A DNA stretch of 56,797 bases from Candidatus Omnitrophota bacterium (GCA_023229385.1 JALNZI010000008.1:1-56797), one strand, 5' to 3'. Positions 5,854 through 48,687 are shown, numbered from the stretch's first letter. The notes: a model not told the origin generated them from the sequence alone. Numbers and translations are program-made.

Positions 5854-6765
5854 CTAATTTTTAATTACTGAATAGCACGCATAAACTAAACCGGGAAAAC
5901 CGGTATTATAAAATGGTTCAATAAAAGATTCTAATATTAAACCCGCTACTTCATCATCTTTATTCAATAAAACGCTTGAAGCATAACCTAAAACTAAACG
6001 ACGTATTGTTTCAGGTTCTTGACCTTTTAAACCTTGTAAAATTGTTTTGACAGTACTCCAACTTTGTTTTTTAATTAAAGCACGACATAAAGCAATTCCC
6101 TCTAATTGTTCTTCTGCTGCTTGCTTAGCAATAGCTAATCTATGTTTTTTTGGTGTGCTTAATACTTTTTCAAGTATTTTAATTGAATTACGTGGACAAC
6201 CTTGACCATCTTGTATAATTTGTTCATAAATTTCTTCATCAATTTCATCATTTTCACCATTAACTATACTAGAAAGTAAAACTTGCATTTCATTATCTGC
6301 TAATAATTGCATTTGAAACTGGCTACAACGACCTTTAACTGTTGGTAATAGGTTTTGCGGGTCGGTAGTGCAAAGCATAAAATAAACGTGATCAGGTGGG
6401 TCTTCGAGTATTTTTAACAATGCGTTCTGGGCATCCCCTGTTGCTTTATGTATTTCATCTAAAATATACACTTTTACACCACCGCCTAAAGGTGTATATT
6501 GACAATTTTTACGTAAATCCCTTACTGTATCAATACCACGAAATTGAGCTGTATCAATTTCAATAATATTGTTTTCATTACAACCTAATTCTTTTGCAAC
6601 AATTCTTGCTACTGTTGTTTTACCTGTACCGGTGGAACCATAAAATAAAAAGGAATGTGGTATTGCTTCTTTATTTTTAAACATACCTTTTAAAGTTAAT
6701 ATAACTTCTTTATTACCTATAATTTCTGATAGGTTTGCAGGACGATATTTGTTATCTAATGACAT
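5854..6765 (-). CDS. clamp loader AAA+ ATPase (DnaX/RFC-like)
   Basis: KYRPANLSEIIGNKEV (compare KYRPxxFxxVVGQ), Walker A GSTGTGKTTVA, Walker B/sensor VYILDEIHK, and the SRC motif GRCSQF. Confidence 0.8.
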   Translation of the reverse strand: MSLDNKYRPANLSEIIGNKEVILTLKGMFKNKEAIPHSFLFYGSTGTGKTTVARIVAKELGCNENNIIEIDTAQFRGIDTVRDLRKNCQYTPLGGGVKVYILDEIHKATGDAQNALLKILEDPPDHVYFMLCTTDPQNLLPTVKGRCSQFQMQLLADNEMQVLLSSIVNGENDEIDEEIYEQIIQDGQGCPRNSIKILEKVLSTPKKHRLAIAKQAAEEQLEGIALCRALIKKQSWSTVKTILQGLKGQEPETIRRLVLGYASSVLLNKDDEVAGLILESFIEPFYNTGFPGLVYACYSVIKN

Positions 6766-6777
6766 AGGTTTAATATT

Positions 6778-7101
6778 TTAATTGATTATTTTATTATAAA
6801 TTCCTTTAACTATTCTGTTTAATATTTGCTCATATAAATCTAATTCATATAAAGCAACTATTTTTTGATTTTCTGGATATTTTGTAGTTATATATTCTTT
6901 TCTATTTTTTAAAATATCTTTTAATAAATTAATATAATTTTGACCGGCATACCTATTAATAAAAGGATCATCTATATCTTTATTTTTCCTTTTACGTATA
7001 GTTTTTTCTAATACTTTTTCAGTATTAAATAAAGATAAATTGCTTTTATTTTTTCTAGTTCTTTTCATTATTTTAAATGTAAAGATTGTTTTTCTGCCCA
7101 A
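6778..7101 (-). CDS. hypothetical protein (possible clamp-loader accessory subunit)
   Basis: ORF immediately upstream of the clamp loader. Confidence 0.3.
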   Translation of the reverse strand: MGRKTIFTFKIMKRTRKNKSNLSLFNTEKVLEKTIRKRKNKDIDDPFINRYAGQNYINLLKDILKNRKEYITTKYPENQKIVALYELDLYEQILNRIVKGIYNKIIN

Positions 7102-8453
7102 CTATGATCAACAGGACTTGCTTCTACATCTATATCTAATGGAACAATGATCCAAGGCCAGTTTATTTGTAAATCATGACACATTATACATCGCATAACT
7201 GCAATAACGTGTTTTAATTCATCTGGTGCAATATCTAAAACAATTGAATCATGTATTTGCCCAACAATTTTACTTTTCCAATGTTCTCTTTGTTGTGCTT
7301 TTATACCTTGTATTAATGACCATAACAAACAATGAAATGCAGAACATTGAATGGGGTAATTCATAACATCATTCTTTTTCATTAAACCATGAAAAGTAAA
7401 ACCAGTCATAGTTTCTACATAACCAATATTTTGATATTGTTGCCAAATATGTTCACGCCATTCATAATATTTTTTATAACGTTTATGCCAAAAATTATAT
7501 TCAATATCTTGTATATGTTCTGTAAATAATTCTAAATTTTTAAAACCTTTACTTATTAAATGATCTGAAATATGTTTATCTTCAAAAACTATACCTTCAC
7601 CTTTTTTCCAATTTTTGGTTTTAGATAATTTACACCATTTAAAAGCTATATTTATAGCACAATTCTTATAATAGTCACCGTAAAACTGTGGAAAAATAAA
7701 ACCATTTTTAGCAGATTGTCTTAATACTGCATGTGTAGGATCATTTTTATTAAACTCTTTTAACTGAAATATTTCCATTGCCATATCCCTGTGCATATCA
7801 CCTTTCAATATATCATCAATTAAACGTTGATCTTTACAAAAACATGATGCTATCCTGACTTCAAGTTGCTTGAAATCAAGCTCAACTAATTGGTGTCCGG
7901 GACTAGGATAAATAGCAGAACGGCAAATATTCATTGCTTCTTCATCCCTTTTTGGAATATTCTGAAAATTTGGATTGCTTGATGATCCTCTGTACGAACG
8001 TACTAAATGTAAATTATAAAATGGGTGCATTATACCGTTAATAGTTTCCCTTTCAAAAGAATCTAAATAAGTATCCCTTATTTTTTTAAGTTTTTTAATT
8101 TGTAAAAGTATGTTTAATTCAGGTATATTTAATTGTACAAGTGCTTCTTCATCTGTGGAACCTTGTTGTTCTGAAGTTGTTTGTTTATCAATTTTTAGTT
8201 TTTTGACTTTGTACAAAAAATTACTTAATTGTACTGGACTGTAAATATTTATTTTACTTTTTACAGATTTTTCCCAATCTAAATAAAAATCACTTTTAAT
8301 AAATTTATGTTCAAGTTTTGTAATTTCTTTTGTTATTTCTTTTTTCTTAGCTTGAACATAATCTATATTTATGTGTAATCCAGCGGATTCAACTTTAGCT
8401 AATGCTAAAATTCCATCATGAAATAATTTATATGAATCTGTTATATTAGTCAT
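7068..8453 (-). CDS. polA: family A DNA polymerase, polymerase (palm/fingers) part
   Basis: Motif A is LVELDFKQLEVRIAS (DYSQIELR-like), motif B is RQSAKNGFIFPQFYG (RRxAKxxNFGxxYG) and motif C is VGQIHDSIV (HDE-like). NFQNIPKR is also present. Confidence 0.85.
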   Translation of the reverse strand: MTNITDSYKLFHDGILALAKVESAGLHINIDYVQAKKKEITKEITKLEHKFIKSDFYLDWEKSVKSKINIYSPVQLSNFLYKVKKLKIDKQTTSEQQGSTDEEALVQLNIPELNILLQIKKLKKIRDTYLDSFERETINGIMHPFYNLHLVRSYRGSSSNPNFQNIPKRDEEAMNICRSAIYPSPGHQLVELDFKQLEVRIASCFCKDQRLIDDILKGDMHRDMAMEIFQLKEFNKNDPTHAVLRQSAKNGFIFPQFYGDYYKNCAINIAFKWCKLSKTKNWKKGEGIVFEDKHISDHLISKGFKNLELFTEHIQDIEYNFWHKRYKKYYEWREHIWQQYQNIGYVETMTGFTFHGLMKKNDVMNYPIQCSAFHCLLWSLIQGIKAQQREHWKSKIVGQIHDSIVLDIAPDELKHVIAVMRCIMCHDLQINWPWIIVPLDIDVEASPVDHSWAEKQSLHLK

Positions 8454-8454
8454 T

Positions 8455-8739
8455 TTATTCTAATTTTCCAACTTTTTTTGAATATTGTAAATATTGTTCA
8501 ATTCTTTCAATTTTTTGAAATCTTAATGTAGGATCAGCAGTATCTAAAATATATACACTACGTAATAATTCAATTATACCTCCAAGATCATTTAATTCTT
8601 TTTCAATAATTTCTTTATTGGTAATGAGTGTAGCAGGATGATGATCATTTAAACCAAAACGTAAAGCTTTAGAAACCGCATGTATTACTTCTGCACATTC
8701 TTCAGAAAGTATTACTAATAAATGTTCTTCTCTTGTCAT
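8455..8739 (-). CDS. MazG-like all-alpha NTP pyrophosphohydrolase
   Basis: LSEECAEVIHAV (EExxE) followed about 28 residues later by EKELND (E-x2-D). Confidence 0.4.
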   Translation of the reverse strand: MTREEHLLVILSEECAEVIHAVSKALRFGLNDHHPATLITNKEIIEKELNDLGGIIELLRSVYILDTADPTLRFQKIERIEQYLQYSKKVGKLE

Positions 8740-9045
8740 TGTATTTTTAATTATTATTTGTTAATTACCCAAGTTAATGCAGCCATTTGTCCTAATAAGT
8801 AACTTATCTCATGATTTAATTCATTTCCTTCACTAGATAATAGATCAATTTGATATAATGAATGCAGTTTTTATCAGTTTTCATTCTTTCTCGATTTAGT
8901 CTTACAATTTTATTACGTATTTTATCTTCTGTTTTCATTTTAATTATTTTTTAAATACGATTATTATAATCATCATTTGATTTTATATAGCATAATAATA
9001 AAAGACAAACTATAATTAATATTATTGTTAATGTTGGTGTCATAA

Positions 9046-10290
9046 TTAAAAAGGTAATGTTAATAATTCAAATTCTTTCATTTGTTTCATAGCTAAACGA
9101 TATTCGTTAATTGAATCATAAGCACAATATTTTAATGTTTCTTTTTTACCTTCCGGTGTTGCAAAATATTCAAGTAAACGATTCATAGAATTTGCATTCT
9201 TTTCATCAATTGCTTGTAAATAAGGTTCCACAGTACTCGAATAATCAATAATGCCAAAATTAACATAGGTTTGAAATTTTAAGTTGGTAATACCTGTACG
9301 ATTATCCAATATATGTGCTGCTAACATAGCATCATGATACCAACTTTTAACCCTAGTTTTTAGTTTAACCCAACTCCAAGTTTCTTCAAATTTCATATTA
9401 TGTGAAAACTTTTTAATATACTTATTATTTAGTAAATTAATAAAAGGTTCTCTTTTTTCAATTTCATTAGGCATTGTAAAAACATAAACATTATCTTCAT
9501 CTGTTGCAACAGAACAACAAACAATTTTATGACTTTTAGCATAAGGTTTTAAACCTGTCGTTTCATAATCAAATGCAATCATTGCATTGTTTGGTATTTG
9601 TTCTAAAACACTTAAATCTGTTATATAATTAATAGTAGGTTCTTGATAAACTGGAAATTCTTTATCTAAAATTGCTAAAGCATTTTTTAAATCTTTTTCA
9701 AATATATTTGCAACTTCTACACGATTACTTTGCTGCACAAATGATGGTAAAAAAACAGGTGCAATCCAACATTTAAGTTCCTGATCAGGTATTATAAAGC
9801 CACGCCATTTATCAATACCTTCCAAAGATTTTTTCCAACGTGAACCAATTACACTTGTTAATGCAATTTTTCCAAACAAAACAATTAACTTAGGTTTGTA
9901 TTGTTGTATGATACGAAAAATATTTAACTGGCAACAACTAATTTCCTTTGCAGTAGGTATTCTACTTTTACCTGTTTCTTTATCATAAGTAAAACAACGT
10001 ACAGCATTTATGTTTATACAATCTTTTTCAATATCAATTCCTAATTTATTATAAACATGATAAATATAATTTTCACTACCCTGAAATGGTTTACTTAATT
10101 GGTCATCTTGAAAGCTTGTAAAGCTACCAATATTCATAATACCTTTTTTAAATTGACCAAAAGGTTCCATTTTAGGGTTAGGGCAATTTATATCATTTTT
10201 ATACAAACCACAACTATAACATGAAAATCCTCTTTTTTTAACAGAGAAATTATCAATTTTTGTTTCTTGTTTTGTAAAGAATCCAGTCAT
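9046..10290 (-). CDS. polA: family A DNA polymerase N-terminal part: UDG family 4-like domain plus 3'-5' exonuclease domain
   Basis: The N-terminal Cys cluster SCYSCGLYKNDINCPNP...KGIMNIGS resembles the family-4 UDG CxxCxL...IGExPG block, with the catalytic GEAPG replaced. Exo I is IAFDYETTGL, Exo II WYHDAMLAAHILD and Exo III YCAYDSINEY. Confidence 0.7.
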   Translation of the reverse strand: MTGFFTKQETKIDNFSVKKRGFSCYSCGLYKNDINCPNPKMEPFGQFKKGIMNIGSFTSFQDDQLSKPFQGSENYIYHVYNKLGIDIEKDCININAVRCFTYDKETGKSRIPTAKEISCCQLNIFRIIQQYKPKLIVLFGKIALTSVIGSRWKKSLEGIDKWRGFIIPDQELKCWIAPVFLPSFVQQSNRVEVANIFEKDLKNALAILDKEFPVYQEPTINYITDLSVLEQIPNNAMIAFDYETTGLKPYAKSHKIVCCSVATDEDNVYVFTMPNEIEKREPFINLLNNKYIKKFSHNMKFEETWSWVKLKTRVKSWYHDAMLAAHILDNRTGITNLKFQTYVNFGIIDYSSTVEPYLQAIDEKNANSMNRLLEYFATPEGKKETLKYCAYDSINEYRLAMKQMKEFELLTLPF

Positions 10291-11315
10291 TATTGTTCTT
10301 TTATACTTAAAGTTGTAAGGTAAGTCCAGTCTTTAGTTTGAAAATACAATATATTCTTATTTAAAATACATTCATCTGTGTATGTTAAAATATCCTTTAA
10401 CATACTTGCTTTTATTGAAAAAACAATTAGTTCACCGGTATATTGTATTTTCATTTTTTCTCTAAACCAACTACTATCAGATTTACTTTTTATTGTAATA
10501 ATGTTTTCATTTATTTCAATATCAATAGTATCTACAATACCTTGTTCTTTATTGGTAAAAATAATAGCTTTATCCAAAACTTCATTTAAACTTTTTGGAA
10601 AAACAATTTTTTTACCTTTAATATTTTTTAAATATTTTGATGTGTCAACAAATGTTTCTTTATAAGTACGGCATGAAATAATTGTACCTTCTTTTGTACG
10701 AAAATGGACCCAACCGTTGCCTTCTGAAACTTTTGTAGGGTTTAATTTAATCAAAGTATTTATAGATGTTGCAGGAATTAAACAAGTATCAATTGGTAAT
10801 TCATTATCTAATTTACAATGCATTATTCTTAAATTATCACAACTTTCAATAAAACCACTTTTATTAATATGTACACAAATTAGTTTTGGATCACTTACAT
10901 CACTTGAACAGCCTATTACAACAAATTTCAAAAATTCTATAAATTTATCAGGTAATTTAAACCATTTATTTTTTACAGAAATTTCTTCATCTAAAGGTAG
11001 TTTAATTTCTTCAATTAATGTAAATCCTGAAATAGATTTACCTGCTTTTAATACAATTTCTTGTTTTTCATTTTTTGTAATATCAATTTCTTCATTTTTA
11101 ATTTTTGCAAGAAATTTATAAAGTTCTTCTGCCTTAATTGCACCGGTAATATCTAAATCAGTAATAGGATGGGATATACTTATTTCATCATTATAAGTTA
11201 CTACACAACCATTTACAAAAGCAAATGAAGTGGATTGTTCAATTATTTCTTTATTTGCTAAACCGGGTTTAACAATTTCAAGTGCATGTTTTAATTCTTC
11301 TTTATTAATTTTCAT
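10290..11315 (-). CDS. dnaN: DNA polymerase sliding clamp (beta, DnaN-like)
   Basis: Three-domain size (341 aa). The N-terminus MKINKEELKHALEIVKPGL is like DnaN MKFTVEREHLLKPLQQV, TFVDTSKYL is like FPDYRRVLP, and IQYTGELIVFSIKASMLKDIL is like VTYSGAEMEIGFNVSYVLDVL. Confidence 0.65.
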   Translation of the reverse strand: MKINKEELKHALEIVKPGLANKEIIEQSTSFAFVNGCVVTYNDEISISHPITDLDITGAIKAEELYKFLAKIKNEEIDITKNEKQEIVLKAGKSISGFTLIEEIKLPLDEEISVKNKWFKLPDKFIEFLKFVVIGCSSDVSDPKLICVHINKSGFIESCDNLRIMHCKLDNELPIDTCLIPATSINTLIKLNPTKVSEGNGWVHFRTKEGTIISCRTYKETFVDTSKYLKNIKGKKIVFPKSLNEVLDKAIIFTNKEQGIVDTIDIEINENIITIKSKSDSSWFREKMKIQYTGELIVFSIKASMLKDILTYTDECILNKNILYFQTKDWTYLTTLSIKEQ

Positions 11316-12448
11316 AATTTTATTTTGATTAAACCATATTTTAAATGGAAATATTTTTTAATAATATTTGGAAAATTCATTTTAAACCTCAATAAACTCT
11401 TATTGTTTTTACTTGCTTGCATAAATGACATTTTTTTAAAAATTGCGGGAACATTACACCATCCACTTAATGCCATATAAAAAGAAGGAAAAGGACTTTT
11501 TCTCCATTTTTCAAATTTCATTATATATGGTAAGCATTCATATTTCATTAGAATATTAAGTCTTTCAAATATTTCAACCAAATCATTTTCCCAAAACTTG
11601 TCATCATATTTGTTATTTTTATCAAATGCACAAAATATATAAAATTTAGGAATTTTGTTTGGCATATACTTTTTAAACAATTTTATTTTTTCTTCAATTA
11701 TTTCTTTATCTTCATAATTATCAAATGCAAATATGTAATCACCATCATATTTACTTTCAGATAATATTTTTGCTTTTTTTTCTGTTAATAAGCGTATATC
11801 AAGACCTTGATTATAACAAAAAGGTTTTTTAGTTTCTTGCAATTGTTTGAATATAATTTCCCAATATTTTCCAGAACCAAATACATTATCGTCTAGTAAT
11901 ATAATTTTCTTTCTTTTTTCATCAACAAATTCTGATAATGGACTATGCAATGTTACAGTTTTAACACCTCTATTGAAACAAAAAGAACATTGTCTAAAAC
12001 ATCCTCTCGTTGTGAATCCGATAGAATAATCTAAATAATTTTTAAAATATTTTCTTTGTCTTCTTTTAAATCTAATTTCATTTTTTATCCATTCATCATA
12101 TAAGTGATAATCAGGAAAGTGATGTTCTATTTCATCAGGTAATCTTGGTGTTTTTGAATACTCTGGTTCTTTTTGTCCTTTTTCATAAAAAAATCCTGAT
12201 CCACCATATTCAACAAATGGTAATTTTAAAATAAATTTTGGTATGTGTGAATCAGTAAAAACTTTTGAAACAAAAACTTTATCATATTTGCTTTGAAAAA
12301 GAGCACTTGGACTAAGCTCTTCAAAAGAAATAAGTTTTACTTTATGTCCAAGTGCTTTATAATAACCTGATAATTTCATCAAAGCAAGATTGGGAAAATT
12401 ATGATGTTTTCTACTGATTAGTTCAACATCAATCATTCCAATATACAT
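11312..12448 (-). CDS. radical SAM enzyme with N-terminal B12-binding-like domain
   Basis: GFTTRGCFRQCSFCFN is a CxxxCxxC radical-SAM cluster motif, and an N-terminal Rossmann-like block MIDVELISRKHHNFPNLALMKLSGYYKALGHKV precedes it. Confidence 0.65.
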   Translation of the reverse strand: MYIGMIDVELISRKHHNFPNLALMKLSGYYKALGHKVKLISFEELSPSALFQSKYDKVFVSKVFTDSHIPKFILKLPFVEYGGSGFFYEKGQKEPEYSKTPRLPDEIEHHFPDYHLYDEWIKNEIRFKRRQRKYFKNYLDYSIGFTTRGCFRQCSFCFNRGVKTVTLHSPLSEFVDEKRKKIILLDDNVFGSGKYWEIIFKQLQETKKPFCYNQGLDIRLLTEKKAKILSESKYDGDYIFAFDNYEDKEIIEEKIKLFKKYMPNKIPKFYIFCAFDKNNKYDDKFWENDLVEIFERLNILMKYECLPYIMKFEKWRKSPFPSFYMALSGWCNVPAIFKKMSFMQASKNNKSLLRFKMNFPNIIKKYFHLKYGLIKIKL

Positions 12449-12467: not shown

Positions 12468-13511
12468 TTATATTTTTTTTACATCTTCTGCATGTTTGTA
12501 GAAGTTTTTTTCGGTGGTAAGAATCATGTACCAAAAACGTTTACTCTGTTTGTGCCAAAAGTACTTTTCAAGTTTTCCTTTTCTTTTTTCTCCTGTTTTG
12601 TCAGTAAAAGTTACCGTATCACCTTTAGCAAATCCTTTAGGCCATTCAACTTTAGCATGTTTTTCTACTTGTTCTTTAACTTTTTTAGCAGGTTTTTCTA
12701 CCTTTTTCTCTGTGGTAAGACCTTGTTCAGCAAGAATATCAAGCATTTTCTTTTTAAGGGAAAATACACTTGATTTAGCTAGTAATGATTTACGTTTCTT
12801 TTTAAACTCGTCATTTTCCTTTACCAAATTTTGCAAATCAGCTTTTTTAGCTGTTTCTTTTACCGTTATTGCAAGATTTTCTTCTTCATCCTCTTCTTCA
12901 TCCTCTTCTTCTTCTGGTTCAGGAACAATTATCTTTTTATTTTTTTTAACGGGTTCAGGTTTATCTTTTTCATTACCTTTTTTTACTGGTGGTAAGTCTT
13001 CATCTTCATCTTCATCAGGTTCAGGTTCAATTACTTTTTTACCTTTTTTTATAGGAATAGGTTCAGGTTTATCTTTTTCATTACCTTTTTTTACTGGTGG
13101 TAAGTCTTCATCTTCATCTTCATCTTCATCAGCATCTTCGTCCTCATCAGCATCTTCGTCCTCATCCTCGTCTTCATCAGCATCTTCGTCCTCATCAGCA
13201 TCTTCATCCTCATCTTCATCCTGATCAGCATCTTCGTCTTCATCAGCATCTTCATCCTCATCTTCATCCTGATCAGCATCTTCGTCTTCATCCTCTGTGC
13301 CATACTTTTCAGCTAAGCCGTCAAAAATGGCCTGTGTAGTTTTGGTAAATTTGTCACCTTCTTCAAACAGTTGAAGAACAGTATCATAAAGTTCCTTTGC
13401 AAATTCATCAAGTTCCATTTCATTATACGCTATTGCAGGATCAACTCCCACAACTTTGTCCAGCTCTTTATAAGCTGCAACCAATTCCTTTTTTGAATAA
13501 TTTTTTGCCAT
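12468..13511 (-). CDS. acidic-repeat protein (EDEDEDADxDE tract plus LPPVKKGNEKDKPEP repeats) with a basic C-terminal domain
   Basis: About 75 aa are purely D/E/A/Q repeats. LPPVKKGNEKDKPEP(I/V) occurs twice, each followed by an acidic run, and there is a C-terminal K-rich domain. Confidence 0.55.
   Translation of the reverse strand: MAKNYSKKELVAAYKELDKVVGVDPAIAYNEMELDEFAKELYDTVLQLFEEGDKFTKTTQAIFDGLAEKYGTEDEDEDADQDEDEDEDADEDEDADQDEDEDEDADEDEDADEDEDEDEDADEDEDADEDEDEDEDLPPVKKGNEKDKPEPIPIKKGKKVIEPEPDEDEDEDLPPVKKGNEKDKPEPVKKNKKIIVPEPEEEEDEEEDEEENLAITVKETAKKADLQNLVKENDEFKKKRKSLLAKSSVFSLKKKMLDILAEQGLTTEKKVEKPAKKVKEQVEKHAKVEWPKGFAKGDTVTFTDKTGEKRKGKLEKYFWHKQSKRFWYMILTTEKNFYKHAEDVKKI
12880..13300. 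repeat. tandem coding repeats (GAT/GAA/GAC-rich 48-bp units, plus a roughly 60-bp unit at about 12950 and 13055)
   Basis: gatcagcatcttcgtcttcatcagcatcttcatcctcatcttcatcct is repeated. ggttcaggtttatctttttcattacctttttttactggtggtaagtcttcatcttcatc is also repeated. Confidence 0.8.
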
Positions 13512-31477: not shown

Positions 31478-31500
31478 TTTTTCTTTGTTTTTAAATTAGT

Positions 31501-31544
31501 AAAGCAAAATTGCTTTGTGCCTGTACCGGAATCGGACCGGTACA
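31501..31544. promoter_or_regulatory. two adjacent palindromes (possible operator/terminator)
   Basis: AAAGCAAAATTGCTTT (31501-31516) and TGTACCGG-aatcgga-CCGGTACA (31522-31544). They lie between gene 31568-31774 and the start of gene 30851-31477. Confidence 0.35.
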
Positions 31545-31567
31545 AAGAACCGTTCAGGCTAATAAAA

Positions 31568-31774
31568 TTAATTGTTGTCTTCAATCACAGTTATAACGAT
31601 TGTTGAGATAAAACTTATAACCGATATAACTGCTAATATTACAGTTATAATAGAATCATGTGCCGTAAAGAAAGAAATAAGTATCATTCCTAGAAAGCTT
31701 ACTACAAAAGTTATGGCTGTAATGATTACTAACCTGTCGATGTTCTGTTCTTTCGTTGTCATAGTGTTTAACAT
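31568..31774 (-). CDS. small two-TM membrane protein
   Basis: Two TM helices: ITAITFVVSFLGMILISFF and IITVILAVISVISFISTIVITVI. It is the first gene of the leftward gene block. Confidence 0.4.
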   Translation of the reverse strand: MLNTMTTKEQNIDRLVIITAITFVVSFLGMILISFFTAHDSIITVILAVISVISFISTIVITVIEDNN

Positions 31775-31785
31775 AATATTAAGTT

Positions 31786-31814
31786 GTTTATCACTGTTAT
31801 CACTTGCAAATATA
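31786..31814 (-). promoter_or_regulatory. candidate leftward promoter/operator: tandem TGTT(T)ATCAC direct repeat plus TATATTTG (-7-like TAnnTTTG) on the minus strand
   Basis: gtttatcac (31786-94) and tgttatcac (31795-803). The rc of caaatata at 31807-31814 is TATATTTG, 33-40 nt upstream of the ATG at 31774. Confidence 0.3.
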
Positions 31815-31960
31815 TGTAATATTATAATACGTTGTACTCATTAATGCAAAAAAATTTAAAAAAAAATTAAATGTATTATAACGTATTAATACACAGTAAG
31901 TTACAACCTTAAATGACTTATATCATAGTATATATATTACTTAACATAATTAAATAACAC

Positions 31961-32130
31961 TATAAAAAGCAATATAAGGCAATTCACCAGGTAAAAGCCT
32001 AATAACCCAACCTGACTATAATAAAGGCTTAAATAGCCTTATAATGCAAAATAAAGGCTATTCAACCAGGTAACCCATATAATAGTATAACAACCTATAA
32101 AAAGGCAATAAGGCACAATAAAAAATAAAG
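31961..32130. repeat. iteron-like cluster: at least 7 copies of (T)AAGGC/GCCTT plus 2 copies of CCAGGTAA within 170 bp
   Basis: ataaggcaa, caccaggtaaaagcct, taaaggctt, atagcctta, taaaggcta, caaccaggtaac, aaaaggcaa and taaggcac. Confidence 0.5.
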
Positions 32131-32947
32131 AAGCAATATGAGTAAATGGTAAAGTAAAGGTATATATTCATCCATATAGTATAATATAGTAATATATGTT
32201 ATAATACAATAAAAAGAATAAAAATATAGTGAAAAATGTAAAAAAGAATAAAAAAGCCGCGCCCGCTTAGCTTCCACACTTTGTTTCTGTACCACACCAA
32301 TATCACTATGATAAGCTATTCATGTACTAATGATATGCTATTCACAACGAATGTTATACTATACTCTATATATAGTATATATACATACCACTGCACTAGC
32401 TCTGTTCACTGCGATTAGCAGGAATAATTGTTATATATAGTAGTGTGCCGAGGTGAAGGGAAGATCAGGTGAATGTGAATGGCGAAAATGGAAAGAGGTT
32501 TGATGGGCTTGTACCTCTCATAGAATATATAAATTTTTTTGATGAATACAAATTTTATTTATTCATTAAAGGCTTGTTATTATTATTTGACGATTCATAT
32601 TGAAAAAAACGAATAAGTATTATATTATAATATAGTATATATAATAGTAATATGTATATACTATATATGGTAAAAATTGTTTTCATTATGATTTATATAT
32701 TCATTATTATATTCTATTCACTATTTATATTCATTATTATTAATATATTTTATTTACCTTTTTTCATTAATATTATTCATTTTACAATTCATAAAAAAAA
32801 TTTGAAAAAATTTTTTAAGGTTTTCAAAAATTAATATTCATTATTGATTATTTATATTGTATAATAAAAATTTTTATTTAATATTGTTAAATGTGTATAT
32901 TATGTTTATCTATATAAGGATTGCTAAAAAAATTTTATGTTTTTTAT

Positions 32948-45432: not shown

Positions 45433-46290
45433 ATGCTAACAGCTAGCAATATCGAAAAAATTTGTATTGTCACAGTATTTGATAGACATTATAAAGAAGC
45501 AGGGAAAACTTTGTTTAATTCAATCAGAAGGCATACAAATTGTGATGGAATAGATTTTAAAGTTATTACATCAGATGAGGAAGTATTAAATGAATGGGGA
45601 AAGGATAATTGTTATTTTGTAACGGATAATATTAAAAATAGGTATAAGAATGTTCAATATTCTAAGGATTTACCTATTGAGCGATATGCTTTATCATGGT
45701 ACAGATATGAAATATTCAATATGACTGATTACGATAGAGTAATATGTATTGATTCTGATTGTATATGTGTTCAAGATATTAGTTATTTATTTAGTGAAGA
45801 ATTAAATCAGTATGATCTTATTTCTGTTGAAGATCATTTTGTATCAAAAATACTACCTAATTTATATTCTAAATTAGAAAAGAATGGTTGGAACTTTACA
45901 AATTTATACAAAAGGGTTTCTTTAAAACAAGTTGATATTCAACCTGCTGTACTTGTAATTAATAAGAATGTCATAAATAGTATATGGTATAATGAGTTAT
46001 TAGCTTATGCTAATAATACGGGTTTTACTTATTCTATTGATCAAGGTATTCTAAATGATTTTATTTATCAAAAAAATATAAATATCAAATTACTACCGTT
46101 GGAATGGAATTATCAAGACCTTTATGCTATTCGTTGTTCAGAACTTGCAGTAGTTAATCCAATTATAATTCATTGTCAAGAATCCAAACCTTTTAAACTT
46201 GTTAGAAAAAATGTAGATGTACGAATACAAAAATTTTATGATCAATGGTGGTATGAATATGATTATGCCAAATCATTGAAAACAACAACA
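45433..46290 (+). repeat. internal duplication, copy 1 of the GT8-like domain
   Basis: About 60-70% nt identity to 46294-47110. It includes an exact 42-bp match at 45775-45816 (gatattagttatttatttagtgaagaattaaatcagtatgat). Confidence 0.8.
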
Positions 46291-48687
46291 AGGATGAAAG
46301 GTAAGATATGTATAACTACTACATTTGATTATAACTATAAACATGCAGGACAAACTTTGCTTAGTTCAATCAGAAGACATACAAATTGTGATGGAATTGA
46401 TTTTAAAATAATTACTAACGATCCAAAGGTTGTGGCTGAGTTTGGAGCAGAAAACTGTCATATTATTACTCCTGAAATACAAGCCAATTATAATAACGTG
46501 AAATATATTACTGATATTCCTAAAGAACAATATTATTCTTCGTGGTATCGTTATGAGATGTTTAATTTTGAGGGATATGATCGGGTAATATGTATTGATT
46601 CTGATTGCATTTGTATTGAAGATATTAGTTATTTATTTAGTGAAGAATTAAATCAGTATGATTTAATATCAACAGAGGACATGATTGTTTCTCACATGTT
46701 TAAACAACATATTCCTTCGTTAGAGAAGAACTACGGATTAAATTTAGTAGGTTTACGACGTAGAATAGCTGCTGGTCAGGTTGATATTCAACCGGCATTA
46801 CTTGTTGCTAATAAAAAAATTGTAAATAATAAATGGTATAAGCAATTAATAACTTATGCCAATACAACAAATCATACTTATTCTATTGACGAAGGTATCT
46901 TAAATGATTTTATTTATTTGAAAAGATTGAACATTAAGATATTACCAATGGAATGGAATTATATGGATACTTATGGTGCTCAAATATTGGAACTTCCTGA
47001 ACCTAAAAAACCTTTTATTGTGCATTGTCAAGAATCTAAACCTTTTAAAAAGGATAAAGCAGATGTTAATGTGCGAATACACAAATGGCATAATAAATGG
47101 TGGGAAGAAGCTAATCATATAAAATATTCAACTATTGTTGCTATTATTGTTTGGAATAGATTTGAAAATCTAAAATTATGGGTAAATGCTTGGAATCAAT
47201 GTATTCAAAGTGATGTTAAGTTAATAGTTGTTCACAATCTTGAAAGTGACAATAATAGATATTCTCAGTTATGTAAAGATAACGGAATAATGTATATTCC
47301 AAGAGAAAATAAAGGTTTTGATATTGGGGCTTTTCAAGATGTATGTAAAGAAAGATTGGAAGGTTTTCCTAATGATTGGGAAAATTTAATCTGGATTACT
47401 GATGATTGTATTCCAATGGCAAAAGATTTTGTTGAACAATTTTTAAAATGTTTACCAAAAATACCTTGTTATGAAATATCTCAGGAAGTAAAAACTCATG
47501 TTAGAACTACCGGATTTTTAGTCACCAAAGAAATATCTAAAAAACTTGTTTTTCCAAAAGACCCGATAGAGAATAGGGAAGATTGCTATCAATTTGAACA
47601 TAAAGGCTTTTTACAAGTTAAAAATATGTATGAACAGATTGTTAGTATGGGAAAACAACCAGTAATGGTTAATAAGGATTTAAGGTTATCTCCATTATGG
47701 GATTCAGGAGTAAGATGGCAACTTAAATTAATGGGTAAACATGAAGCTATTTTTCCATTTATTAAAATAAATGTTGAACCGATAAAAGTAGATGTTAAAC
47801 TAGTTGAAGCAGAATTACCTATAAGAAAACCAATTCGATGGAAAAAAATGGGTAATGGTTCCTTTTTATTTAATAATTGTTATATTAAAAAAAATCAAGT
47901 ATTTACTGCATTTTCTGAAGATATTCCAAAACAGTTTCGTGATGTAATTATTCCATTAGAAGAAATAGTTTCGGAAATTAAAAAAGTTATTCCAGTTGAA
48001 CCGGTTAAATTAAATAGTAAACCGATTATATATAATGTTTTGGATGAGTTGGCTATTAAGCATAAATCAGATAAGTCTTCTAGGTATCATAATTACGCAG
48101 TAAAATATGATAAAATATTATTTCCGTTTAGAGAATCATTTTCATCAATTTTAGAAATTGGTGTATCACAGGGACAGTCTACAAAAATGTGGACCGATTA
48201 TTTTGAGAATGCTACTATTCACGGTGCAGATATTGAAAAAGGTTCTAAAATTTGTGAATCATATTCTAATAGAGTAAAATTTCATGAACTTGACCAACGA
48301 GATTTAGCACAACTTAAAAATCTTGAACAATTTTCTCCATTTGATTTTGTAATAGATGATGGTAATCATTTTTGGTTTGAACAAATTCTTACATTTGAGG
48401 CTTTGTTTCCTTATGTTAGAAAAGGAGGAATATATATTGTTGAAGATACTACTACTTCTTATTGGGAGGAATATAAAAATAATCCGATTTCACCCGTAGA
48501 ATATTTTAAGACATTGGTAGATGAAGTTCATCTTAAAGGGGCAAGAGGAAATATTCCTATAAATCCCCCGCAGGAATTTGGTAATTGGGAAAAAGGGTGG
48601 CATCGTAGGGAAGATTGTTTTGAATCAGTACCTTTATTTGAATCAATTCAATTTATGAATGGTTTTATTGTAATTTATAAAAGATAA
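45433..48687 (+). CDS. 1084-aa multidomain fusion: GT8-like + GT8-like + GT-A (GT2-like) + shared 50-aa module + TylF/MycF-like O-methyltransferase
   Basis: The two GT8 units each carry the donor-site DxD block VICIDSDCIC(V/I)(Q/E)DI and the HxxGxxKPF block (IIHCQESKPF and IVHCQESKPF). The GT-A block is IVAIIVWNRFENLKLWVNAW...LIWITDDCIP. The O-methyltransferase has motif I ILEIGVSQGQSTKMW, then DFVIDDGNH and GGIYIVEDT. Confidence 0.7.
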   Translation: MLTASNIEKICIVTVFDRHYKEAGKTLFNSIRRHTNCDGIDFKVITSDEEVLNEWGKDNCYFVTDNIKNRYKNVQYSKDLPIERYALSWYRYEIFNMTDYDRVICIDSDCICVQDISYLFSEELNQYDLISVEDHFVSKILPNLYSKLEKNGWNFTNLYKRVSLKQVDIQPAVLVINKNVINSIWYNELLAYANNTGFTYSIDQGILNDFIYQKNINIKLLPLEWNYQDLYAIRCSELAVVNPIIIHCQESKPFKLVRKNVDVRIQKFYDQWWYEYDYAKSLKTTTRMKGKICITTTFDYNYKHAGQTLLSSIRRHTNCDGIDFKIITNDPKVVAEFGAENCHIITPEIQANYNNVKYITDIPKEQYYSSWYRYEMFNFEGYDRVICIDSDCICIEDISYLFSEELNQYDLISTEDMIVSHMFKQHIPSLEKNYGLNLVGLRRRIAAGQVDIQPALLVANKKIVNNKWYKQLITYANTTNHTYSIDEGILNDFIYLKRLNIKILPMEWNYMDTYGAQILELPEPKKPFIVHCQESKPFKKDKADVNVRIHKWHNKWWEEANHIKYSTIVAIIVWNRFENLKLWVNAWNQCIQSDVKLIVVHNLESDNNRYSQLCKDNGIMYIPRENKGFDIGAFQDVCKERLEGFPNDWENLIWITDDCIPMAKDFVEQFLKCLPKIPCYEISQEVKTHVRTTGFLVTKEISKKLVFPKDPIENREDCYQFEHKGFLQVKNMYEQIVSMGKQPVMVNKDLRLSPLWDSGVRWQLKLMGKHEAIFPFIKINVEPIKVDVKLVEAELPIRKPIRWKKMGNGSFLFNNCYIKKNQVFTAFSEDIPKQFRDVIIPLEEIVSEIKKVIPVEPVKLNSKPIIYNVLDELAIKHKSDKSSRYHNYAVKYDKILFPFRESFSSILEIGVSQGQSTKMWTDYFENATIHGADIEKGSKICESYSNRVKFHELDQRDLAQLKNLEQFSPFDFVIDDGNHFWFEQILTFEALFPYVRKGGIYIVEDTTTSYWEEYKNNPISPVEYFKTLVDEVHLKGARGNIPINPPQEFGNWEKGWHRREDCFESVPLFESIQFMNGFIVIYKR
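46294..47110 (+). repeat. internal duplication, copy 2 of the GT8-like domain
   Basis: Exact 42-bp match at 46621-46662, with parallel protein blocks HAGQTLLSSIRRHTNCDGIDFKIIT and EAGKTLFNSIRRHTNCDGIDFKVIT. Confidence 0.8.

Follow-up and report, generated by a model that had tools for sequence, protein, structure and literature searches.

The window, i.e., the whole stretch of 56,797 nucleotides that was analyzed, carries a family-A DNA polymerase (PolA) of an uncultured phage, encoded by two genes in a replication module. All genes described here are on the minus strand. The sliding-clamp (processivity factor) gene lies at positions 10290-11315 (PHROG 947, E = 5e-29), and its stop codon overlaps the start codon of the next gene in the sequence TAATG. 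This gene (9046-10290) encodes the exonuclease half, subunit 1 of the split PolA, a protein of 414 aa with a UDG-like domain and a 3'-5' exonuclease domain. Downstream are a hydrophobic ORF of 30 aa (orf30, 8951-9043), a frameshifted copy of a 61-aa junction gene (orf61, 8754-8938) and the gene for a MazG-like all-alpha NTP pyrophosphohydrolase of 94 aa (8455-8739). One nucleotide separates the stop codon of the MazG-like gene from the start of the polymerase half (TAA-A-ATG), which is subunit 2 with thumb, palm and fingers (7068-8453, 461 aa). The three ORFs described in an earlier sequence-only reading, those of the two halves and the MazG-like protein, all exist exactly where that reading had placed them.

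The stop codon of the polymerase half in turn overlaps the ATG of a small conserved gene (p96, 6778-7068) in a second TAATG; its product has no assigned function and is 96 aa long counted from that ATG. Homologues of p96 follow the polymerase gene in the related loci L080 and L090-L094, and 96-aa genes are called in L104 and L106. The gene for a clamp-loader ATPase of the DnaX gamma/tau type follows at 5854-6765 (Pfam DNA_pol3_delta2, E = 5e-29; PHROG 5846, E = 2e-67; NCBIfam dnaX_nterm, E = 8e-61, which is under the cut-off of that model). Besides clamp and loader, the replication module includes a DnaB-like helicase. The order of clamp, exonuclease half, polymerase half and loader is conserved across approximately 70 related loci, and in essentially all of them the orientation is also kept. 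At the nucleotide level, no match of the window to any deposited phage was found. We suppose that clamp, exonuclease half, small ORFs, MazG-like gene, polymerase half, p96 and loader form a packed, translationally coupled run.

The exonuclease half matched Pfam UDG with 40 bits (cut-off 24.3) and Pfam DNA_pol_A_exo1 (PF01612) with 38.5 bits (cut-off 23.6). Its best PDB matches by sequence were the family-4 UDGs 4zbx and 1l9g, together with UdgX. The AF2 model (pLDDT 90.3) was compared with known structures by Foldseek. The best match was the phiLo UDG-PolA (9qhs, chain A; E = 5e-13), followed by family-4 UDGs; the TM values of the UDG-like domain against 1l9g, 4zbx, 1ui0 and UdgX were 0.71-0.81. 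Based on the alignment with 4zbx and 1l9g, the clade alignments and the Foldseek result, the family-4 UDG-like domain was assigned to aa 17-211 (9658-10242). Thus, the N-terminal domain is UDG-family-4-like with four Cys residues, as the sequence-only reading had proposed, and the objection that it might have no UDG fold does not hold.

The 3'-5' exonuclease domain occupies aa 227-409 (9064-9612), as judged from the Pfam match, the invariant columns and Foldseek, which also matched it to the exonuclease domains of Klenow and the apicoplast polymerase. Exo I (D241/E243), Exo II (N298/E302) and Exo III (Y388/D392) are all present, and these residues are invariant or nearly so in 51 homologues. 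The 3'-5' exonuclease of subunit 1 is active-looking. The protein ends 22 aa past the Exo III Asp, somewhat later than the "about 15 aa" noted earlier. Its C-terminal tripeptide is Leu-Pro-Phe-COOH (9049-9057). When the C-termini of homologues were compared, LPF was found at the end of 95 proteins among the nearest 120 (the best 120 of 1099 exonuclease-half homologues). The tail was not seen in the wider clade, nor in the linkers of fused forms. In the AF2 model it is of low confidence, i.e., flexible (pLDDT approximately 59 for the last residues).

Cys24, Cys27, Cys99 and Cys120 of the UDG-like domain align with the Cys residues of family 4 and are all invariant; they are putative 4Fe-4S ligands, as in family 4. 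The stacking residue Phe69 and Asn95 are also retained. In motif A, GSFTS (aa 55-59) stands where family 4 has GEAPG, in agreement with the degenerate GE(A/G)PG block of the sequence-only reading. In addition, the His of motif B is replaced by Leu (LPS for HPS at aa 181-183; FLPSF versus FHPSY). The catalytic residues of phiLo are E53, P55 and H178 (bioRxiv 10.1101/2025.03.26.645540); the corresponding residues in the window are S, T and L. With the NCBIfam models TIGR00758 and NF040953, the domain scored 38-41 bits, below their cut-offs of 125-250.

The motif loss is common to about half of the nearest homologues, and active-looking and inactive-looking UDG domains alternate between close relatives in the clade. 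In 53 motif-less homologues, none of the four Cys varies, and Phe/Trp69 and Asn95 are retained for the most part. The mean identity inside this group was 52% for the UDG-like domain versus 56% for the exonuclease domain, and the UDG-like domain identity was 0.52 in the motif-less versus 0.63 in the motif-bearing group. The domain thus seems to evolve somewhat faster in the motif-less group, which could reflect a partial relaxation of constraint and not a new function.

A domain of this kind might still be enzymatic, acting as a glycosylase or a covalent uracil binder through other residues; its target could also have changed, for instance to a modified base. UdgX is a family-4 fold with non-canonical chemistry (PMC4787834). 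In the window, Phe69, Asn95, the Fe-S Cys residues and a DD pair after motif A are conserved, and the replacement motif G-[EDST]-[FY]-[TP] is fairly conserved in the 53 homologues, 27 of which keep the Glu. However, all three phiLo catalytic residues are replaced in the window (E to S, P to T, H to L), and a KRRIH loop of the UdgX type is absent. Furthermore, the motif-B His has become S, A, D, N or L across the group, a diversity which speaks against a conserved new catalytic residue. We consider that an enzymatic UDG-like domain has a rather small chance of being correct. A role in DNA binding or uracil sensing, as proposed in the sequence-only reading, would fit the residue pattern and the published view of the N4-like UDG-PolAs, in which the UDG domain is inactive (PMC10201439). 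In the solved UDG-PolA structures, the UDG domain overlies the incoming template strand. Without its base-excision residues, the domain in the window is most likely a structural or template-guiding module, which possibly still touches uracil and would not be a glycosylase.

The polymerase half matched Pfam DNA_pol_A (PF00476) with E = 2e-46 and 158.9 bits (cut-off 34.3). Motifs A, B and C are LDFKQLEVR, RQSAKNGFIFPQFYG and QIHDSIV, respectively. The Asp residues of these motifs are invariant in 66 clade sequences, and the HDS of motif C is typical of the clade, with Ser after HD in 55 of the 66. The homologue alignments thus agree with the sequence-only reading that Exo I-III and motifs A to C are all present. 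The half was also aligned to Klenow, Bst and Taq (E = 4e-21). Residue 18 corresponds to residue 214 of the Klenow chain. Therefore, residue 1 of the polymerase half lies at approximately residue 520 of Pol I, the exonuclease/polymerase boundary, and the split is located at the domain boundary as had been predicted. Exonuclease and polymerase, which family A combines in one polypeptide, are here in separate genes 592 bp apart.

The contig derives from a metagenome-assembled genome, and a 1-nt deletion in an A-run is indeed present in one of the small genes of the gap. A sequencing or assembly frameshift, or a chimeric join, could then conceal a single polymerase gene in the true phage. However, this explanation fails because the 592 bp between the halves contain one complete, conserved gene, as well as stop codons in all frames. 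The layout is also repeated in contigs from other samples: three independent assemblies are 99.95-99.99% identical and have no indels (L099, 99.95% over 4002 nt with 0 gaps; L104, 99.99% over 9126 nt with 0 gaps).

Relatives of the window were surveyed in 72 informative IMG/VR loci. In 64 of these, the polymerase is split at the same point (approximately Klenow residue 520); query residues 400-414 mark the end of the exonuclease half, and residues 1-7 the beginning of the polymerase half. The best 120 of the 1099 exonuclease-half homologues are all 399-420 aa long and consist of UDG and exonuclease only, without a polymerase domain. The closest relatives (61-70% identity) are likewise split. 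In many relatives with abutting halves, the start and stop codons overlap as ATGA, and the abutting halves are probably translationally coupled. We conclude that the split is real and that an artefact has practically no chance of explaining it. The split, which had been read as a peculiarity of one locus, has been passed on throughout a large clade of phages, and it is old.

The halves are colinear with the fused forms L002, L005, L089 and Edwardsiella phage ZHS, with no residues lost. In an NJ tree, fused forms are placed at several deep positions. Therefore, the number and the direction of fission or re-fusion events are not fixed by the tree.

The gap between the exonuclease half and the MazG-like gene (8740-9045) is 306 bp long. 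It was described as non-coding DNA with tiny ORFs in the sequence-only reading; in fact it holds the 30-aa ORF and the frameshifted 61-aa gene. orf30 begins 2 nt past the stop codon of the exonuclease half, and no homologue of it was found, nor any Pfam or PHROG match. DNA alignments and translations show that orf61 is interrupted by the 1-nt deletion in the A-run, so that it is called as a 40-aa ORF (8816-8938). The same deletion is present in the independent contigs L099 and L104. The gene is intact in the strains L106 and L094, and a strain with an intact copy is 94% identical.

The halves abut or overlap (within approximately 40 nt) in 27 loci, with 23 distinct junction sequences. The junction of 37 other loci is filled with 0.19-5.3 kb of variable, unrelated genes. 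NTP pyrophosphatases of several families recur among them. The junction genes include MazG, dATP/dGTP pyrophosphohydrolase, PRA-PH, HD/YfbR-like, dCTP deaminase, NUDIX and PTPS, as well as N6/N4 and C5 DNA methylases and one HNH gene. Strains 92-96% identical to the window carry different genes upstream of orf61 and MazG. Thus, the junction between the subunits is a hot spot, or landing site, for accessory genes. The insertion of MazG is the only recent part, and the fission itself is old.

The junction could also be viewed as a mobile intervening sequence (a group I or II intron, a split or degenerate intein, or a homing-endonuclease cassette), whose splicing restores a single chain. Group I introns that encode HNH endonucleases are known from SPO1-type UDG-PolA genes (cited in PMC10580990). 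In some relatives, the polymerase half, the exonuclease half or the clamp loader is enlarged by in-frame insertions of intein size, and the HNH gene mentioned above lies in the junction of L045. However, an Rfam E-value scan of 6500-10800 for intron RNA gave zero matches, and Pfam and PHROG detected no Hint, LAGLIDADG, GIY-YIG or HNH signals in the small ORFs. The gap (8740-9045) was thus searched as proposed along with the sequence-only reading, and it showed no remnant of an intein, an intron or a homing endonuclease. Moreover, the stop codon of the exonuclease half and the ATG of the polymerase half coincide exactly with the domain boundary, and conserved residues are neither missing nor added. 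Ordinary genes from a wide range of unrelated families make up the junction ORFs, and an endonuclease occurs in only 1 of the 37 occupied junctions. We regard an intervening sequence as very improbable.

The MazG-like protein matched PHROG 4856 ("NTP pyrophosphohydrolase") with E = 2e-21. With Pfam MazG (PF03819), it scored 17.4 bits, under the cut-off of 22; 21 of 52 members of its family match this model (best E = 2e-6). In the family alignment, the acidic motif EExxE...ExxD has invariant E13, E14, E17 and E48, and D51 is conserved in at least 90%. A MazG-like gene inside the split, as described earlier, is in agreement with these results. The AF2 model shows three long helices (pLDDT 95.7). 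The PDB sequence search gave no match. Foldseek with the monomer model gave none at E <= 0.001 in the PDB; the sole pyrophosphatase match was 4qgp (E = 3.9), the monomer of an intertwined oligomer being a poor query. The MazG assignment is a putative one, based on profile similarity and motifs only. Full-length homologues were found in 143 phage records. In other phages, the homologues are not adjacent to a polymerase, and therefore the position of the gene here may be functionally meaningless.

It may further be asked whether the halves work together at all. The polymerase half could be an exonuclease-less polymerase, and the other half an independent UDG-like/exonuclease repair or nuclease factor. 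The genes are up to 5.3 kb apart in relatives, and the conserved LPF tail of the exonuclease half could tether it separately, e.g., to the clamp. However, the order and orientation of the four replication genes are conserved, abutting halves appear to be translationally coupled, and fused relatives are colinear. In addition, the exonuclease domain is reportedly required for PolA stability, and reassembly has been predicted for the split T7-like enzyme (PMC10201439). We therefore give uncoupled halves only a small chance.

Based on these results, it is highly probable that the locus encodes a two-subunit replicative polymerase of family A, which was formed by a fixed fission of a UDG-PolA at the exonuclease/polymerase boundary. 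The halves would reassemble non-covalently into a Klenow-like enzyme, by analogy with the prediction for split T7-like PolAs. After the fission, accessory genes would have entered the junction by recombination and made it a hot spot; in the lineage of the window, the junction now seems to hold orf30, the decayed orf61 and the recently acquired MazG-like gene. We infer that the MazG-like enzyme hydrolyses non-canonical or unwanted dNTPs near the replisome.

UDG-PolA fusions have been published for N4-like phages (cluster #17, with an inactive UDG) and for SPO1-like and SP15-like phages (with an active UDG) (PMC10201439), and cryo-EM structures are available for the phiLo and YerA41 enzymes (bioRxiv 10.1101/2025.03.26.645540). 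As in these fusions, the domain order in the window is family-4 UDG-like, 3'-5' exonuclease and family-A polymerase; the loss of the UDG catalytic residues is shared with the N4-like enzymes. In contrast to the fusions, the polymerase domain is in a separate gene, and genes for a clamp and a clamp loader of its own lie on either side of the enzyme. A helix and a beta-hairpin are reported to be missing from the N4-like UDG domains, whereas the window has a UDG-like domain of full length in which the Fe-S Cys residues are retained. By tblastn, the fused polymerases of an SPO1-type Bacillus phage and of Serratia and Rhizobium phages were matched; the identity to cultured UDG-PolAs was just 20-30%. 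The polymerase of the window is likely distinct from the N4-, SPO1- and SP15-like clusters. The closest cultured relative of both halves is Edwardsiella phage vB_EpM_ZHS (OM621816), which has the same order of a beta-clamp-like gene, UDG-exonuclease-polymerase, a small gene and a gamma/tau-like loader. Its polymerase differs in being a single chain of 876 aa, with approximately 25% identity to the window.

A PolA split between exonuclease and polymerase is known in T7-like cyanophages (S-SBP1-like, cluster #5) (PMC10201439). In both systems, the fission is at the domain boundary and gives two neighboring genes, which are adjacent or overlapping in many relatives of the window, and non-covalent reassembly is expected. 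However, the lineage of the window is UDG-PolA, not T7-like; no T7-like phages were among the matches listed, and the nearest relatives are UDG-PolAs. The exonuclease subunit has the extra UDG-like domain, and the enzyme is accompanied by clamp, loader and DnaB-like helicase, unlike a T7-type replisome, and has no thioredoxin-binding domain. Whereas the S-SBP1-like split is a recent +1 frameshift, the fission in the clade of the window is old and occurs widely, in over a thousand proteins, and its junction is colonized by accessory genes.

The MazG-like protein resembles the MazG/all-alpha NTP pyrophosphohydrolase superfamily in its length of approximately 95 aa, its predicted all-helical structure, its acidic motif and its profile matches. 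It differs in scoring under the Pfam cut-off and in having neither a PDB match, by sequence or fold, nor an experimentally characterized close relative.

In the poxvirus polymerase holoenzyme, a UDG (D4/E4) is a processivity component, and archaeal family-B polymerases have a uracil read-ahead pocket. As proposed for the window, a UDG-fold or uracil-binding module is located on the template ahead of the active site, and excision is not required or involved. These polymerases, however, belong to family B and not to family A, the poxvirus UDG is of the family-1 type, and the window enzyme is not known to stall at uracil. The Mpox parallel for a UDG module on the template strand has been drawn for the UDG-PolA structures (bioRxiv 10.1101/2025.03.26.645540). 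UDG-PolA fusions and the exonuclease/polymerase split of T7-like phages have already been published separately, whereas the combination of the split with a UDG-PolA, the insertion hot spot and the LPF C-terminal tail appear to be new.

A tight minus-strand gene run occupies 5.8-11.3 kb of the window. It comprises genes for a clamp (10290-11315), for a 414-aa protein (9046-10290; the exonuclease half), for a 94-aa MazG-like protein (8455-8739; PHROG 4856), for a 461-aa polymerase half (7068-8453; DNA_pol_A, E = 2e-46) and for a DnaX-like clamp loader (5854-6765), all on the (-) strand. In the 414-aa protein, Pfam UDG covers residues 44-190 with 40 bits (cut-off 24.3) and DNA_pol_A_exo1 covers residues 229-394 with 38.5 bits (cut-off 23.6). 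ORF finding places two tiny (-) ORFs (8951-9043 and 8816-8938) between the exonuclease half and the MazG-like gene, and a small ORF separates the polymerase half from the clamp loader. The clamp was assigned from its PHROG match, the sole support for it; no match was detected in PDB sequences, Pfam or NCBIfam. Thus, the ORF, Pfam and PHROG results agree with the coordinates and domain calls of the sequence-only reading. TAATG overlaps join the clamp to the exonuclease half and the polymerase half to p96, the small ORF at 6778-7068 (-). The start of p96 is probably the ATG that overlaps the polymerase stop (96 aa), not the upstream TTG chosen by the ORF finder (107 aa), and p96 is kept 3' of the polymerase gene in close relatives. 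In a promoter and terminator scan, promoter-like sites were at chance level and no terminators were detected, so separate transcription units are unsupported.

The two halves were predicted to part at the exonuclease/polymerase domain boundary. When the polymerase half was aligned by phmmer with PDB sequences, its residue 18 corresponded to Klenow-chain residue 214 (Pol I ~537). Its residue 1 therefore lies at about residue 520, the accepted boundary, as predicted. In the exonuclease half, Exo I (D241, E243), Exo II (N298...E302) and Exo III (Y388...D392) were invariant or nearly so among 51 homologues, and the protein ends 22 residues past D392. Polymerase motifs A, B and C were all found in the other half, motif C in the clade being typically HDS, not HDE. 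In fused relatives (loci L002, L005 and L089 among them), the single chain is colinear with the window's two proteins taken in succession, without loss of a conserved segment.

A sequencing frameshift could in principle produce such a split. This error is ruled out because the 592 bp between the halves have stops in every frame and include a complete conserved gene. Two independent, near-identical contigs, L099 (JGI 3300014204; 99.95% identity over 4002 nt) and L104 (ENA ERZ27247350; 99.99% over 9126 nt), match the window with 0 gaps. Moreover, of 89 IMG/VR loci collected by searches with either half, 72 were informative, and 64 of these are split at the same place, the remaining 8 being fused. 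Thus, the split is genuine.

The split had been presented as a peculiarity of this locus, and is instead clade-wide. The exonuclease half gave 1099 matches at E <= 1e-10 among 5.8 billion proteins. The best 120 of these 1099 are all 399-420 aa long with UDG and exonuclease domains only, and the closest relatives (61-70% identity) are likewise split. Many loci with abutting halves have an ATGA in which the polymerase ATG overlaps the exonuclease-half stop, as is usual for separate genes whose translation is coupled. Among cultured phages, Edwardsiella phage vB_EpM_ZHS is nearest to both halves, at ~25% identity. Its module has the order of the window (clamp, polymerase, small gene, clamp loader), with UDG, exonuclease and polymerase in one fused 876-aa gene. 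To our knowledge, every published UDG-PolA is fused as well; the fused form is therefore presumably ancestral. At the nucleotide level, 7068-10290 matched none of 50,697 phage records; a close cultured relative is therefore absent from these records. In a rough NJ tree, fused members of the clade occupy several deep positions. Either a single fission with later re-fusions, which the ATGA overlap makes easy, or several fissions may underlie this pattern.

We then analyzed the junction of the window. The exonuclease-half stop TAA is followed by TT and the ATG of orf30, a hydrophobic 30-aa ORF for which no homologue was found. Window positions 8938-8754 are homologous to a 61-aa gene (orf61) that fills the junction in the related contigs L094 and L095. 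This gene is intact in L094 and in L106 (~94% identical to the window over the region), where its sequence is MKTEDKIRNEIIRLNQERIKIDEKLHLLCQIDLLSSEGNELNHEISYLLGQMAALTWVINK. A 1-nt deletion in an A-run, common to the window, L099 and L104, breaks the frame. The window copy (8754-8938) looks like a recent pseudogene; the deletion is possibly a recoding site. The 306-bp gap was thus wrongly taken as non-coding. The close strains L103, L105 and L106 share MazG and the polymerase half with the window at 94-96% identity, and the DNA upstream is replaced by a 98-aa and a 56-aa ORF, or by a C5 methylase, a 142-aa ORF and orf61. The breakpoint in L103 and L105 lies within the 3' end of the small ORF. 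On the other side, a gap of 1 nt (TAA-A-ATG) separates the stop of MazG from the start of the polymerase half. Remnants of an intein, intron or homing endonuclease, which had been suggested as something the gap might hold, were not found at the window junction with Rfam, Pfam or PHROG, and an Rfam E-value scan of 6500-10800 for introns and other RNAs gave zero matches. Repeats near the gap, sought as insertion scars or terminal repeats, were just AT-rich chance matches.

The MazG-like protein matched PHROG 4856 ('nucleoside triphosphate pyrophosphohydrolase') with E = 2e-21 and Pfam MazG with 17.4 bits (cut-off 22). Against solved structures, no significant match was obtained with the single sequence, a profile or Foldseek on a model of pLDDT 95.7. 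We considered whether 8740-8938 is the decayed N-terminal part of a longer MazG, the PHROG profile having 195 positions. This was rejected: the segment is the frameshifted, unrelated orf61, and the 94-aa form is the norm for this MazG family. BLASTP against the 89 related loci gave zero matches; the protein is therefore not a clade-wide junction gene. Other junction NTP pyrophosphatases belong to different families, to which it is only marginally similar, and its homologues of 53-54% identity in other phages are not polymerase-adjacent.

In the relatives, the halves abut or overlap in 27 split loci, and a junction of 0.19-5.3 kb is present in 37. The junction ORFs belong to many unrelated families. 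Pfam identified MazG in L067 and L031 (also L044, L064, L038 and L039 by clustering), a dATP/dGTP pyrophosphohydrolase together with dCTP deaminase and DUF4406 in L057, PRA-PH in L079 (and L068 by BLAST), an HD/YfbR-like protein in L019, PTPS/QueD in L067, and an N6/N4 methylase in L064, as well as a SLOG protein and TSCPD and GH16 domains. A NUDIX match in L063 was weak, just under the Pfam cut-off, and an HNH endonuclease was found by Pfam in a single case, L045. C5 methylases occur at the junction in closer relatives. NTP-pyrophosphatase-type genes of at least four families, the window's counted, recur there. Since these families differ and the homologues of the window's MazG elsewhere are not polymerase-adjacent, the link is to the slot rather than to a single gene lineage. 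At this junction, a fission site has turned into a cargo slot for nucleotide-pool and DNA-modification genes.

Genes of the 7-deazaguanine pathway (QueC, GTP cyclohydrolase I, QueF, PTPS/QueD) adjoin the replication module or occupy the polymerase junction in some relatives (L098 675-2309; L067 4389-4880; L068 5133-5570), which points to modified DNA in part of the clade. In-frame insertions of ~180-370 aa that look like inteins break BLAST alignments of replication proteins in relatives: in the polymerase half of L018, L020, L072, L077 and L080, the exonuclease half of L003 and L077, and the clamp loader of L005, L009, L011, L012, L070 and L077; L091 has a methylase with Hint_2. The window's own copies lack such insertions.

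In a PDB sequence search, the exonuclease half matched the family-4 UDGs of S. tokodaii (E = 2e-6) and T. maritima, and then UdgX. Its AlphaFold2 model (51 homologues; pLDDT 90.3, pTM 0.86) gave as best Foldseek match the cryo-EM structure of the phiLo UDG-PolA (9qhs_A, E = 5e-13). Family-4 UDGs and UdgX followed (TM 0.71-0.81 on target); exonuclease domains of PolAs, Klenow included, ranked after these. The Fe-S cysteines C24, C27, C99 and C120, the stacking Phe (KPFQG) and the Asn (NAVRC) are retained. Motif A reads GSFTS in place of GEAPG, and the motif-B His is replaced by Leu. A UDG-like domain with a replaced GEAPG block had been described correctly; the description was incomplete in that the His is lost too. 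The residues corresponding to the phiLo excision-site residues E53, P55 and H178 (bioRxiv 10.1101/2025.03.26.645540) are all three substituted. Uracil-sensing by the domain is possible, as the pocket residues are kept.

Motif states were scored in the 121 nearest exonuclease-half proteins. Motif A and the His are both absent in 53 (identity 0.52 in the UDG domain, 0.56 in the exonuclease domain) and both kept in 54 (0.63 and 0.58, respectively); 14 are mixed. The Fe-S cysteines are invariant across all three groups. These results indicate that the UDG domain is retained under constraint, somewhat relaxed after loss of the catalytic residues. Independent motif losses occur elsewhere in the wider clade (e.g. 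L001, L013, L023, L056, L082, L086). A link between motif loss and a junction NTP pyrophosphatase was rejected, because several loci with intact GEAPG carry one too. Active-looking and dead UDG domains alternate among close relatives, a natural experiment on the role of UDG beyond uracil excision.

The exonuclease half ends in Leu-Pro-Phe-COOH (LPF; window 9049-9057), as do 95 of its best 120 homologues. The tail has low confidence in the AlphaFold2 model, and the C-terminus of the polymerase half has no comparable conservation. Since LPF is missing in the wider clade and in the linker of fused forms, it arose after the fission, and a relic of the ancestral inter-domain linker was rejected. 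Bacterial clamp-binding peptides include QLSLPL (Hda) and QL[SD]LF, which we take the LPF tail to resemble, and the exonuclease-half gene lies directly downstream of the clamp gene. By analogy with Pol III epsilon, LPF may tether the proofreading subunit to the clamp, or it may be a latch onto the polymerase half. We regard as rather improbable a fuller version of the tether, in which the fission was kept for the freed proofreading C-terminus, which became a conserved clamp-docking peptide in the window's subclade. In this version, the sliding clamp bound by the peptide would be that of the phage itself. The holoenzyme would be a family-A enzyme that depends on the clamp; its clamp-tethered core would be the subunit with the UDG-like and exonuclease domains and not the polymerase subunit, and the dead UDG domain would guide the template strand.

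The window is an entire contig of 56,797 bp, deposited in GenBank within a 'Candidatus Omnitrophica bacterium' MAG. MCK9429585-87 are annotated there as polymerase, hypothetical and hypothetical. The exonuclease half is thus labelled 'hypothetical protein' in an Omnitrophica MAG, yet the contig is a phage genome. Its gene content is that of a tailed phage. For packaging and the head, it encodes both terminase subunits (small and large), a portal and head proteins; for replication, it encodes a RuvC-like resolvase, a UvsX-like recombinase, a DnaB-like helicase, a primase, an initiator and an SNF2-type helicase. Either the phage was binned wrongly, or it is linked to an Omnitrophica host. No terminal direct repeat was found on the contig. 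The scanned window ORFs include a single recognisable nucleotide-pool enzyme, the MazG-like protein; dUTPase, thymidylate synthase and a separate UDG were not detected among them.

Several other features were observed. Directly upstream of the clamp gene and overlapping it is a radical-SAM gene (11312-12448 (-); PHROG 9298, E = 4e-47), in whose place L105 (92-96% identical to the window) has a C5 DNA methylase. A 347-aa protein (12468-13511 (-)) has long Asp/Glu repeats (DEDEDEDAD...), a duplicated 'LPPVKKGNEKDKPEP' segment and no PHROG match; it may mimic DNA or be an acidic protein of scaffolding-like type. A 1084-aa structural-module protein (45433-48687 (+)) carries a C-terminal methyltransferase-like domain (PHROG 21658, residues 870-1016). 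At ~31500-32900, the coding strand changes from minus (replication) to plus (packaging/structural), and the GC skew changes sign there too.

Overall, the sequence-only reading is supported, with three amendments: the split is clade-wide, the gap is not simply non-coding and the motif-B His is lost too. Family-A polymerases are textbook single-chain enzymes. Our results add a second, much larger split-PolA lineage, with the UDG-PolA architecture, clamp and loader partners and more than 1000 exonuclease-half proteins in public metagenomes. Naturally split, putatively self-assembling PolA halves and small NTP-cleaning enzymes are also of interest to polymerase engineering. This adds to present knowledge and does not overturn it.

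Exo/pol gene fission in T7-like cyanophages was reported in 2023 and called the first in PolAs; the same report describes UDG-PolA fusions, including inactive-UDG N4-like enzymes (PMC10201439). Within the literature searched, the term 'UDG-PolA' occurred in that report alone, and no description of a split UDG-PolA was found. Thus, both ingredients are published and their combination was not found in that literature: the variant is new, the kind known. The fission in the UDG-PolA lineage is independent of the T7-like one, ancient and very populous. The cargo-slot junction, the recurrent UDG inactivation and the lineage-specific C-terminal tail are further new points. If the clamp reading of LPF were true, the holoenzyme would resemble Pol III epsilon-beta-alpha. 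In the N4-like UDG-PolAs, the inactive UDG has been proposed as a processivity or structural module (PMC10201439), and the window agrees with these enzymes in that the catalytic residues are likewise lost and the domain is retained. In contrast to the motif-less UDG of the window, the UDG domain of SP15-like enzymes is active and cuts out dU that lies on the template five nucleotides in front of the active site (bioRxiv 10.1101/2025.03.26.645540).
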